Source: Aplysia californica (Eukaryota). From it: 64,000 nucleotides of DNA. The stretch covers positions 205,743 to 269,742 of the forward strand of contig NW_004798086.1 of NCBI RefSeq assembly GCF_000002075.1. Direction: 5' to 3'. The notes under the pieces are model-generated. The model was given only the letters and a program-made list of their open reading frames with translations. It did no database searches and was not told the DNA's origin. Both the position numbers and the translations under genes were made by a program. Below, piece by piece: positions 40,519-50,901 of this stretch (position 1 is the first letter of the stretch; each line of letters begins with the position of its first letter).

Positions 40519-40764
40519 ATGACGGAATATCGCAACCCTTACCCCGAAATCCAGATCGACACCTTGGAGATAGACTTCAACCAGAACGCATCGCAAGCGG
40601 AGCGGCCATTGCTTAGCAATGGTCTGACGTCACTGCCGGAAGTGTGTGAAACATCCTCCTTCATCCAATCAGATCCTTCGGCTCGCGTGACGTTCAATGT
40701 GGGTGGAGTCGTGTTTCAAACATCTGAAGCTACAGTGAAGAAATCAACCAATGACAGCTTTAAG
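40519..40764 (+). CDS. Shaw/Kv3-like voltage-gated K+ channel, coding exon 1 (N terminus, start of T1)
   Basis: Acceptor TTATTCCAG at 40513; ATG 40519; ..ARVTFNVGGVVFQT..SFK|GTAGGG, phase 0. Confidence 0.8.
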
Positions 40765-42081
40765 GTAGGGTGGGAAAAGATGAGGTAAAAAAAAAAGTTA
40801 GGATTAAAGTTCTGAGGAGAGTATCTAAAGATAACGTAGATTTCCTTCATGATTTTTAAATGTACTATATTTTATTTTCAATGTAAGTGTTTTTACACCC
40901 CATAAACACACTTTTGGATCATGTAGAAGACGAGCTTTTTTTTTTTTTGGTTTTTTTTTTTACCCTGCCCAATTCTATCATCTGGCGCTTTTTTGTTTAA
41001 AAATAACAACAAACTGTGCTGCATTTTGGATTTTGAAATTAGCTGTTGGTCTTAAAATAAACACACGGGAGACTGTTTTATGTATAAATAAACACAGGAA
41101 TAAATAAATAGATATATATGTTACTTCACTCTTAACGTTTATTGCGAAGTTACACACCTTAGTGTTGCCACAGCCCTAACTGGAGATGGTTACAATAACT
41201 GGTTAGTTGTTAATTGTTTAGATCATGTTAGTCCTACATTCCTCAGCTGTTTGAGTCACGAGGTGGGCACCCTCTGTCCCGCTCCATAGAGGAGTCATCT
41301 TCACAGTGTCACCGAAGGTTCCGAAAGTTTGCACGCAGTCTCATGCTATGGTGGTGACATTGTCAGTATTACTACCTAAACTACTTTTATCTCATGGATT
41401 GTTTTCAGCCGGATCGCTTATCGAAAAAAAAATAAGTACAACGACTTGTGGGTTGACCTGTTAGACGACTCACTGTCCCAGGGCTAGTGGAGACATCACA
41501 ATACGATGAAACCACTTTACCCGGGGGAAGCCCCCCTCCCCCTATACTTCTTAACAGTACAGCACTCCCCATGCTACATGTAAAACACAAATTTTGAAAA
41601 ATAAGATAGTATAGTATGATAGTAATAGTAATGAATAGTTTTAATATAACATTTTCTAACACCGCAAACAAAAAACATGACAAATAATAATGGCAACTGA
41701 ATTTAAAAAATGTTTATGTGTAACGTTTCCCCATTATTGACAATGTATTAATGTGCGTGCTTGTTGGAATGAGGGTGAGCGACAGATAGTTGAGGATAGT
41801 ATAGAGGACCTGAGTTAATACTGAAAGGGTGCAGTAGGAGGGGTTATATCTCATGAGACTTGTGATCTTTTGTACGCCGAAATATATTATGGTCCGAATA
41901 ACGCTATTTTGAGAAAATCAAAGGTAAAGTTTTTGCCCCTTGTTCACTTTCTTTAAAAGACAATGAGAATTTTCTCTATAACTAAACAAATATACACACC
42001 AATGAAACCAAACGTCTCCTATAGGTAGGGCAATGCCCACTTTTGGTGTAGGTCAAGATTTCAGGAAACCCCCGAAAAACT

Positions 42082-42977
42082 TCTGAGTCTGAGAGTTAGT
42101 CATCATATCGCAACATGGGTCCTGGAATTTTTGACAGGCAGACCACAATATGTGAAGCTAAACAACACAAAATCTGACGCAATTCTTTGTAACATCAGTG
42201 GTCCCCAGGGGTGTGTTTTGTCACCAGTTTTGTATACAATATATACCAACGATCATAGAAGTATATATAAAACAACACGCTTAATTAAGTTTGCAGATGA
42301 CTCCGCTATTATTGGATTAATAAACCATGATGAAAAAGAGTATTTCGAAGAAATATGTAGGTTTTTTAAATGGTGCAATTCAAATTTTCTAAAAGTGAAC
42401 CTCTCAAAAACAAAGGAAATGATTTTTTATTTTAGAAGAGAAAAACCAACAATCCCACCACTGGTAATTGAACAAGAAACTATTGAAATCACGGATTCAT
42501 ACAAATATCTTGGTCTTACAATCAACAACAAGTTTACATGGCAAAATCACTTAACAATATCGTTAAAAAGGTAAATCAGAGGTTGTACTTTCTGAGGAAA
42601 CCAAAGTCTTTCAATCTGAATCCATCCATCCTTCAGATTTTCTACACCACCACAATAGGAACTTTGATAAATTTTGGTATCACTTGCTAGGATAGCAATC
42701 TGGGAAGGCATCACATTATAAAAATAAACAAGTTGATAAGAAAGGCATCAAGAACAATTGGTAGAGACCTAAGTAACTTTGAATATCTGCACAATACAAA
42801 CGTTCTAAAAAGGCGGAAATAATGTTTACTGACCATACCCACCCACTGACATCGGAATTTGAACTATCGACCCGCAGTAAACGATACATTTCCAAAAAAG
42901 CAAGAACAGACAGATATAGAAATTCATTCGTACCAACTGCAGTGAGGTTACTAAACACACAGTGCTACAAATGAAAC

Positions 42978-43041
<64 letters not shown>

Positions 43042-48013: not shown

Positions 48014-48817
48014 ATATGAGGTATTGTATACCACTCAGCACAGTTGTAGCCCTGTGGTTAGGCTACCGGACTCATAATCGTGACTTTGCGGGTTCAGAAG
48101 TTCGATCCTCAGCTCGGTCCGATGTTGTGTCCTTGGGAAAGGCACTTTACACGAATTTCCCTTTTGGCTCGGTTCTTTCGGAGATGAACGTTAAATTCAG
48201 AGGTCCCGCCTCTTAAATAACCTATTAGTGTTGATATGGACGTTAAAACTTCACCATTTCACCATTTTCAGCACAGGTTGGCCTAAACAGGCAGGGTCGA
48301 AGCAATCTGCTCTCCATATGTTATCTTTATGGCAGGAAAACACGCACTTACAATGTATAATTATCAGTATTATGTTATCGTCTGGCAGTTGTTAACATGG
48401 GCGGAGGCCAACAATTTTTTTTCCAGTTTCTTAATCTTTGATGTCATTTGCATTTGGTCAAGAAATTAATATTTGTTTGTTGGAGGAGAATTTCTCAAAA
48501 CTAGGTACAGAGCAGATGGAACTGTGTAATTGTTTAAAGAATTGAGCCGCTTTTTCCCCTCTATTTCCTGTAAAAAAAAATATTTTAACAATGCTTCCAG
48601 GGCTTAGTGCATTTTAACAGCTTGCAGGTGACATACTTGTGGTCTCAATTTGGTCGATGATGGTGAAAAAGTCCAAAATTAAAATCACTGTCTTCATTTT
48701 TAAAAATACAGTATATACAGTTCTTACAATTTGGTAGGGGGGAGGGGCAAAAAACGTAATGTTGTTACGAATAAATTAAAAATAATAAGGCAGTTATTAT
48801 CAAAATTGTATTCTTAA

Positions 48818-49536
48818 GGGGGGGGAGTACACACCCAAAGTCCCGATTCGGCTCAAAATTATGAAATTCGACTTGTAGGTTTGTTTAGTTTCCTGGCAGC
48901 CTCTCCTACAACTATTCCATGGCTTATGAACCCCCTAAATCCTTATTTCCCCCAAGACTGGGCATGTTTGTTACCACCATTTCCTCATAAAGTCAACATT
49001 TTATTTTTTTTCATTGGCCGTTTTCTCAAAACGCGATTTTCCACTATACTTTTTTTTAATAACCACCATTTTTTATCCAATCTTCATGAAATTTTCACAG
49101 AATGAAGAGAAGAGGTAATACTAAATATCTATCTGTTGAATTTGTTATAGATCTATGTGCAATTGATTTTTGTTGGTGGTGTCCGAAGTGTGGATTTTTA
49201 CAGATGTTTCGCAAACTTGAATACTACCTCAGGAAGAAATTCTTTAAAATATTTTCTAATTCATTTAAGAAAACCACAATAGACAAATCTTTAGATCTAA
49301 TGTTTGCTTGCTAAAAAAGCAATCAATTTCCAAGAAAAATAAGTGCGGTATTCATTACGTAAGACATGTCAACAAAATCCAATATGGCCGCCGTTTACAT
49401 GGAAACGAAACTTTTTTCTCAAATTTGATTGCGGATTATAAAACTCCTTACTATGCTTGTTATATGTGCGAAATTTGGTAAACTTTAGTCCTCTAATAAC
49501 CGAGATAGCCTTCAGGTGCCCCCCCCCCCCCCCCCT
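48818..49536. mobile_element. Kolobok-like non-autonomous element (TTAA TSD)
   Basis: TTAA|GGGGGGGG...CCCCCT|TTAA; homologous to 16286-17010. Confidence 0.7.
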
Positions 49537-49773
49537 TTAAAAATATTGACTTTGGATGTTTGCAAAGAGTTTGTTTTCTTGGTTATACTATTCAGTTTTT
49601 GGGGTTTGTTTGTTCTTGCTGTTTGTTGTTTTGTTTTGTTTTTTAACTCTCCTGTAAAATTGTAAAAACTGCCTACTACACTGTGATTCTACAAAATGAC
49701 GGCAGACTACACGTAGGGCCTATATGTACACACATATCTGACACCCGCCCACGTCTCTGTCTGTCCCCCACAG

Positions 49774-50901
49774 GTCTACGCCTACGTGTCTCTCTTCTTC
49801 GTGATCCTCGCCATCTTCTCCTTCTGTGCGGCCACACACTCCATATTTCACATCGACCAGGACGGCAACGGCAACGGCAACAACAACAACAACAACACCA
49901 TCATCGAAAGCACATTATCCTCGCCCCTGACATCCATTCTCTCATCATCGCCGCTCTCGCCAAACTCCACGACGGCCAACCCATCCGTTGTGGCTGTCAC
50001 CATGACGACAAGGACAGCGTCGCCACGTAACACGACAGAGAAGCCCACGGTGAGAGCGCCCCTCGTCCACCCAGCGTTGTTCTACATCGACATCATCTGT
50101 CTGGTTTTCTTTACCGTGGAGTATTTGTTAAAACTGATCGTCGCCCCGAAAAGATGTAAGTTTATCATTAGTTTCAACGCCGTGATCGATGTGTTGGCCA
50201 TTCTGCCGGACTACGTGGAGATCATTATCCATTCTTTATATCCAGAATCTTCGGGGGAACCGAACAATTTCGTCCAGACAATGCCTTTTCTGAGGCTCCT
50301 ACGAGCTTTCCGAATCTTTCGTTTAGTTCGCAGAGTGCCCGGGCTGTGGATAATGGTGTACACTCTCAAAGCCAGCTTCAAGGAGCTCTCGCTCATGCTC
50401 GTAGTTCTACTTGTCGGAACTCTTCTGTTTTCGTCCGTCATTTTCTTCGTGGACGACCCCAAAGTCTTCACCAGCATCCCTCACGGCTTCTGGTGGGCCA
50501 TTGTTACCATGACAACCGTGGGCTACGGCGATATGGCCCCGGTGACGATGTGGGGTCAAGTGGTGGGCTCGTTCACGGCGATCTGCGGCGTTCTCATGAT
50601 TGGGTTCACGATCCCGAGTCTGGTGAACAACTTCATCACGTTCTACCAGCACGTCGACTTCGTGGTGCAGAAAGAGCGGCTCATGGTGGAGCACCACCGC
50701 GAGGAGATGGCCAGACTCAGGAAGAGGAAGAAGAGCGAGGTGGTCGGGAAGTGGAAAGCTGCCGTTGTGGCTGCCGCGGTAGATGGCTTGACTGCTGGTG
50801 GTGGTGGGGGTGGTGGGGGTCATATAGAGGATAGTTCGGGTCTTGACTTTCCACATCGCCGGCAGGAGACAAGGCGGGAATCTCAGCCAGTGGTGCAGTG
50901 A
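49774..50901 (+). CDS. Shaw-like Kv channel, coding exon 4 (S1-S6, pore, C terminus)
   Basis: CCCACAG|VYAYVSLFFV..; S2 FFTVEY; S3 IDVLAILP; S4 FLRLLRAFRIFRLVRR; pore SIPHGFWWAIVTMTTVGYGDMAP; S6 CGVLMIGFTIPSLVNNF; stop TGA 50899-50901. Spliced product ~586 aa. Confidence 0.95.
   Translation, partial: VYAYVSLFFVILAIFSFCAATHSIFHIDQDGNGNGNNNNNNTIIESTLSSPLTSILSSSPLSPNSTTANPSVVAVTMTTRTASPRNTTEKPTVRAPLVHPALFYIDIICLVFFTVEYLLKLIVAPKRCKFIISFNAVIDVLAILPDYVEIIIHSLYPESSGEPNNFVQTMPFLRLLRAFRIFRLVRRVPGLWIMVYTLKASFKELSLMLVVLLVGTLLFSSVIFFVDDPKVFTSIPHGFWWAIVTMTTVGYGDMAPVTMWGQVVGSFTAICGVLMIGFTIPSLVNNFITFYQHVDFVVQKERLMVEHHREEMARLRKRKKSEVVGKWKAAVVAAAVDGLTAGGGGGGGGHIEDSSGLDFPHRRQETRRESQPVVQ

Follow-up and report, generated by a model that had tools for sequence, protein, structure and literature searches.

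A Shaw-related Aplysia channel gene with a TIP gate, a candidate regulatory subunit

Can a Shaker-family potassium channel subunit that lacks the first proline of its S6 gate carry current alone, or does it serve only as a partner of conducting subunits? The question is raised by a gene at positions 40519 to 50901 of a 64,000-nucleotide stretch of the Aplysia californica genome (assembly GCF_000002075.1, contig NW_004798086.1, positions 205,743 to 269,742), the whole of which is called the window here. The gene encodes a voltage-gated potassium (Kv) channel subunit related to Shaw (Kv3), and its gate reads TIPSLV where the canonical Shaw of Aplysia has PVPVIV. We favor, with a probability of roughly 0.6, that the product is an obligate-heteromer, Shaw-related regulatory subunit, which would carry little or no current alone and would alter the gating of a conducting Shaw-type partner.

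Aplysia is a main model of neuronal excitability, and 11 of its 18 counted Shaker-family loci break the gate rule that separates conducting from silent subunits. If these subunits are silent, they represent a large independent origin of regulatory subunits in protostomes. If they conduct, they are natural, compensated channels without a proline that is essential in Shaker, which bears on the S6 hinge and limits the use of the gate as a marker.

Gate and family placement

According to Table S2 of Pisupati 2018, all 27 homomer-forming subunits of mouse and Nematostella have P1, P3, I5 and V6 (numbers being gate positions), S never occurs at position 4, and the consensus is P-[VI]-P-[VIT]-I-V. 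Unusual gate changes are found there in 42 of 43 proven regulatory subunits. TIPSLV differs from the consensus, and from all 27 homomer-formers, at three of its six positions (T at 1, S at 4 and L at 5), which bears out the earlier remark in that this gate lies outside the consensus of homomer-forming subunits. Shaker provides a precedent. In the accessible part of Hackos 2002, P473A and P473W are delivered to the membrane, where they produce gating current with zero ionic current, P473D is held in the endoplasmic reticulum, and V476A and I477A conduct. Because P473A and P473W fail but V476A and I477A work, we regard position 1 as the load-bearing gate change.

The gene is not the lone divergent copy that it had appeared to be. 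The Aplysia genome holds at least 18 Kv loci, counted as pore loci, and the gate is of the T/S-x-P type in 11 of 18 (L001-L005, L007, L008, L010, L011, L014 and L015) and PxP in 6, with one Shal whose gate was not read. Conducting-type PVP Shaw genes are found at two loci, the canonical L012 and a second one, L017. In the first homologue search, the first proline was absent from 80 of the top 81 matches, the query among them, with T in 55, S in 23 and A in 2; the remaining match was without the filter. Of the next 39 matches, 32 have this proline. The named homologues come from gastropods, bivalves, cephalopods, a chiton, annelids, a brachiopod, nemerteans, a bryozoan and an acanthocephalan.

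Gates are fixed per sub-branch, as TVPIVV, SVP(V/A)IV, TIPVIS/TFPVIS, TIP(S/A)LV, SAPTLV, TIPTLS and PIAIIA. TIPVIS/TFPVIS and TIPTLS carry a polar residue at seal position 6, and PIAIIA has lost the second proline instead. The query group is gastropod (17 rows), with T at gate position 1, P3 and V6 in 17/17 each, and mostly with Gly two residues upstream of the gate. Within the branch, L008 is the most conserved; it has GYGDK after the filter, its 25 orthologues from five phyla all have TVPIVV, and TRL is retained in T1 of 22.

The phylogeny that the preliminary description had proposed as a check was run. The starting set was 395 stored proteins. Those that had T1 and a single filter, 213 in number, were placed in a FastTree tree, and 71 of these, picked by hand, in an IQ-TREE tree (LG+G4, 396 columns, eight gate columns removed). 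Without the gate columns, all 41 T/S-x-P rows group with three PIA/PIP rows in a single 44-row branch (support 100/100), which holds homologues from five phyla besides that of Aplysia, and this branch lies with canonical and cnidarian Shaw opposite Kv1, 2, 4 and 5 (split 100/99). Once the three PIA rows are set aside, the remaining 41 T/S-x-P rows are monophyletic in 30% of bootstrap trees. The other ten Aplysia T/S-x-P loci all fall inside the branch (Shimodaira-Hasegawa-like approximate likelihood ratio 100) in a quick tree with partial rows and without L016 and L018. The trees are to be read with groups named after the first tree was known, several long branches and no mixture model.

The Shaw-related, lophotrochozoan origin proposed earlier is supported. 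The branch lies on the Kv3 side, and T1 identity favors Shaw, at 49% vs 43% to Kv4, 39% to Kv2 and 32% to Kv1. On the other hand, joining the branch with Kv2 is not rejected in the approximately unbiased test (p 0.074), and the transmembrane region of the query is about equidistant to Kv1, Kv2 and Kv3 (37-39%). The mean path from the Kv3 node is 2.03 for the query group vs 0.94 for canonical Shaw.

Judged from its members, the branch is the same as expansion M of lophotrochozoan Shaw genes, published by Jegla 2012 (PMC3519636, Fig. S2). It includes Lottia 71678, 171056 and 172897 and Capitella 52417, which are listed there, and Lottia 179090 carries GFTVP. The accessible part of that paper counts Shaw genes (13 in Lottia and 9 in Capitella), with no mention of the T/S-x-P gate and no test of a member. 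Lophotrochozoan Kv3 duplications are also described in the accessible part of a 2025 preprint, and the legend of Table S23 in a Lymnaea paper speaks of a 'potentially novel family' of Kv channels, which may already cover the branch.

An acanthocephalan sequence (P0253, Neoechinorhynchus, TIPIIS gate) lies inside the branch; by this single sequence, the origin of the branch would move toward the base of Spiralia. Four relatives of the query group that evolve very fast (L003, L004, L005 and L011) stand in tandem at C127:554167-571237, where the gates are SAPTLV, TIPTLI, TIPTLS and TIPTMV. The T1 exon of L008 is found on two contigs (L025 and L026, on C28 and C3593), as a duplicate or an assembly haplotype. 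Outside the branch, L016 (C10:280416-283766) is of the Kv1 type, with a T1 lacking the Zn site, a GYGE filter and a PVPIIT gate, and is by these features a candidate Shaker regulatory subunit.

The predicted subunit

Four exons with GT-AG, phase-0 joints yield a product of 586 amino acids with a single terminal stop. The features, by window position, are as follows.

40519 to 40764, plus strand: coding exon 1, disordered N-terminus and beginning of T1; transcripts begin this exon at 40514
44521 to 44667, plus strand: coding exon 2, T1 core with FFDRDP and the H and first C of the Zn site; PF02214
45777 to 46016, plus strand: coding exon 3, end of T1 with the CC of the Zn site, and T1-S1 linker
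49774 to 50901, plus strand: coding exon 4, S1-S6, C-terminus and stop; PF00520
44638 to 45833, plus strand: T1 Zn site HX5CX20CC, residues 122-150, split by intron 2
50287 to 50334, plus strand: S4 voltage sensor, R2-R6 kept, R1 position occupied by Pro382
50443 to 50457, plus strand: end of S5 and short turret, FFVDD
50515 to 50532, plus strand: K+ selectivity filter TVGYGD
50587 to 50634, plus strand: S6, GVLMIGFTIPSLVNNF, containing the gate
50608 to 50625, plus strand: S6 gate TIPSLV, residues 490-495, with Gly488-Phe489 just before

The product is identical to Aplysia californica XP_012944267.1 (P0002 in our set), which carries the automatic name KCNC3. Pfam matches are BTB_2 (PF02214, 1e-22) and Ion_trans (PF00520, 2.5e-37). 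With an N-terminal T1/BTB, a six-transmembrane Ion_trans domain, TVGYGD and a charged S4, the product is a Shaker-family Kv subunit, and HX5CX20CC in T1 assigns it to the Kv2-4 lineage. The intact TVGYGD, charged S4, Zn site, divergent S6 and FFVDD reported in the preliminary description were all found in place.

In an AlphaFold model (74-row alignment; mean predicted local distance difference test score, pLDDT, of 77), T1 and S1-S6 are normal. The model resembles Kv4 and Kv3.1 structures, with Kv4 chains at the top by E-value and human Kv3.1 giving the best whole-model TM-score (0.54). The S1-S2 loop of about 70 residues (window about 49850-50060) abounds in Asn, Ser and Thr; it has several N-glycosylation sequons and low pLDDT. 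After GYGDM (window 50533-50541), the residue that we take to be the external tetraethylammonium site is Ala, presumably predicting low sensitivity; relatives often have Tyr there.

Two other features had been offered as signs of an unusual subunit. The lack of P.TRL in T1 is a weak argument, as P.TRL is a motif of Shaw and Shab and is also absent from T1 of Aplysia Shaker and Shal. The equivalent stretch is folded in the AlphaFold model (block pLDDT 87-97), and a missing exon that would supply the motif was ruled out, since the contigs splice exon 1 straight to exon 2. The turret is indeed short, by about 3 residues relative to Kv1.3 and about 5 relative to Aplysia Shaw, but FFVDD retains the acid of YYAE, as D, and says little on silence. 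Both arguments are light because regulatory subunits have no consistent T1 signature in the accessible part of Pisupati 2018, and neither P.TRL loss nor FFVDD was kept as evidence of silence.

A regulatory partner or a channel of its own

As a regulatory subunit, the product would act through its gate. Four T490 gates in one tetramer would open poorly, comparably to Shaker P473A/W, and one copy, or two diagonal copies, would be tolerated next to PVP subunits. The partner would be one of the two PVP Shaw subunits (the canonical L012 or L017) or L008 (TVPIVV) from its own branch, and 11 such subunits could generate a combinatorial set of Shaw currents in neurons. We infer an obligate heteromer because group-specific gates fit a two-step model once homomers cease to matter, and because a similar pattern is reported in the accessible part of Lara 2023, where 11 of 14 cnidarian regulatory groups have an altered gate that is conserved within the orthologue group. 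The long branches and the presence of the PVP Shaw partners also support this reading. The TIP-to-PVP rescue suggested earlier may fail even for a regulatory subunit, because the gate change is a marker, not a cause, of the silent phenotype (Lara 2023).

Silent Kv3 subunits have arisen before, as NvShawR and vertebrate Kv3.5, and by analogy would be the precedent. In the accessible part of the 2025 preprint, origins of regulatory subunits are listed for vertebrates, cnidarians, ctenophores and choanoflagellates alone. The same preprint describes vertebrate Kv3.5 as Kv3-derived, silent and dependent on Kv3.1, whereas silence of the query is predicted. Cnidarian ShawR is Kv3-derived like the query, with an altered gate conserved within ShawR. 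In published tables, however, the second proline of ShawR is replaced by Ser (100%) and position 6 is mostly Gly, whereas the query loses the first proline and keeps P3 and V6; the two are separate in the IQ-TREE tree.

Vertebrate Kv5/6/8/9 resemble the query in the Zn-site T1 and the intact filter, and a hydroxyl residue replaces a gate proline in Kv6-9. They are Kv2-derived, however, and Kv6-9 replace P3 and carry an aromatic residue at position 6, as far as the tabulated sequences go. NvShakR2/3 form the only tabulated group that has lost P1 in every member; position 1 is I/L there, and position 6 is aromatic. Within Aplysia, canonical Shaw (L012/L020) has the T1 closest to the query (49%) and shares its Zn site, but differs in its PVPVIV gate, its T1 motifs (RHETYK, PATRL and FFDRHP), fewer S4 charges, a longer turret and a transmembrane identity of 37%. 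FFDRDP of the query T1 is common to Aplysia Shal.

Several points weigh against a silent subunit. The regulatory role is read from sequence; in a literature search that left most subscription journals outside its coverage, neither a functional test of this gene or of another branch member nor a remark on the T/S-x-P gate was found. The gate-marker rule was drawn from two species, and of the 43 proven regulatory subunits in Table S2 of Pisupati 2018, none has T at position 1 and 88% have P. In the query group, positions 2 and 6, which face the pore, are kept along with the second proline. The case leans mainly on position 1, because P3 and V6 are kept and Shaker V476A and I477A conduct. The upstream Gly and a changed S4-S5 linker could be compensations.

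Position 1 is also conserved as a hydroxyl residue: of the 273 gates without proline there, counted over a redundant set of stored proteins, 266 have T or S. Weighed as evidence against silence, this conservation is ambiguous because conserved hydroxyl replacements of gate residues are known also in proven silent subunits (Pisupati 2018, Table S2), and altered gates are conserved in proven regulatory groups too. In addition, L008, with its invariant TVPIVV and largely retained TRL, looks by sequence like a self-sufficient channel.

A divergent non-inactivating Shaker-family channel of Aplysia, aKv5.1 (Zhao et al. 1994), could belong to the branch; two profile searches built on Aplysia paralogues brought up none of the Aplysia paralogue proteins, and the aKv5.1 gene was not identified among the Aplysia loci. 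This channel reportedly gives homomeric current in oocytes.

The first alternative is a self-sufficient homotetramer whose hinge has one proline and a hydroxyl substitution and whose gating is atypical (e.g. slow or shifted, non-inactivating), maybe from a fifth subfamily that assembles apart from canonical Shaw. We consider it possible, at odds well short of even. The conserved hydroxyl at position 1 and the unchanged gate of the L008 orthologues speak for it, as do the intact seal residues, filter and R2-R6 of the query, its equidistant transmembrane part, T1 motifs unlike those of Shaw and the Kv2 pairing that was not rejected. With its reported current, aKv5.1 is an example of a divergent Aplysia Kv that conducts. 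It has to be reconciled with P1 in all 27 homomer-formers and with the non-conducting P473A/W of Shaker. Moreover, varied gates and long branches in the clade fit a relaxed homomer constraint, and the query gate is farther from the consensus than that of L008.

A wider proposal, which we hold to be rather doubtful, is that the branch would be a spiralian Kv3-derived assembly group with a [T/S]xP gate, having L008 as a conducting core and many regulatory partners including the query. Such a group would be a fifth functional Shaker subfamily, with 11 of the 18 Aplysia loci, largely independent of canonical Shaw.

It is improbable that the main role is other than central-pore conduction, be it an omega leak like that of the flatworm N.at-Kv3.2, dominant-negative suppression or scaffolding. 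The neutral R1 (Pro382) and the first acid of S2, which is Asp in 37 of 44 branch rows, would suit such a role. However, both Kv4 rows share the S2 Asp and a neutral R1, and Kv4 are ordinary channels. N.at-Kv3.2, in the accessible part of its description, has His at R1 and Asp at the same S2 site and carries an omega current, but it lacks R3, which the query retains, and the filter and pore helix of the query are fully conserved. No N.at-Kv3.2 sequence turned up in the stored protein set.

Integrity, transcripts and surroundings

The frame had been called intact and the gene no pseudogene, and both hold. Four sequencing runs were aligned over window 39800-52200, their RNA status being guessed and no tissue or cell labels being attached. 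Contigs of X1, X9 and X13, from three studies, join all four exons, and these three of the four runs are taken as transcripts because intron-free contigs are an mRNA signature. X17, the remaining run, has zero reads on the coding exons. In the transcript contigs, the first coding exon starts at 40514, and 142-220 nt are added from an exon farther upstream. Among the coding variants listed, 9 of 10 are silent, and the other one lies in an Asn run of the S1-S2 loop. The gene is under purifying selection, and it is intact and spliced.

A pseudogene, mis-assembly or sequencing artefact is very improbable: X17 is the only point in favor, against the open 586-residue frame, the contigs spliced in three studies, the silent variants and the recurrence of this gate type in 80 of the 81 top matches.

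At window 40514-40522, ATG-AAA-TGA makes a two-codon frame that overlaps the main ATG. Three gap letters occur within the exon-4 contig pieces.

Elsewhere in the window, a DHHC palmitoyltransferase (5086-5970, plus strand), two single-exon rhodopsin-type G-protein-coupled receptors (17784-18842 and 24081-25667, both minus strand) and an astacin exon (36451-36768, plus strand) were found, and no connection of these neighbours with the channel was seen. A retroelement-like minus-strand remnant with zero Pfam matches lies at 315-1362 and an RNase H fragment at 31867-32562. A reverse-transcriptase fragment (RVT_1) occupies 42029-42571, inside intron 1 of the channel gene.

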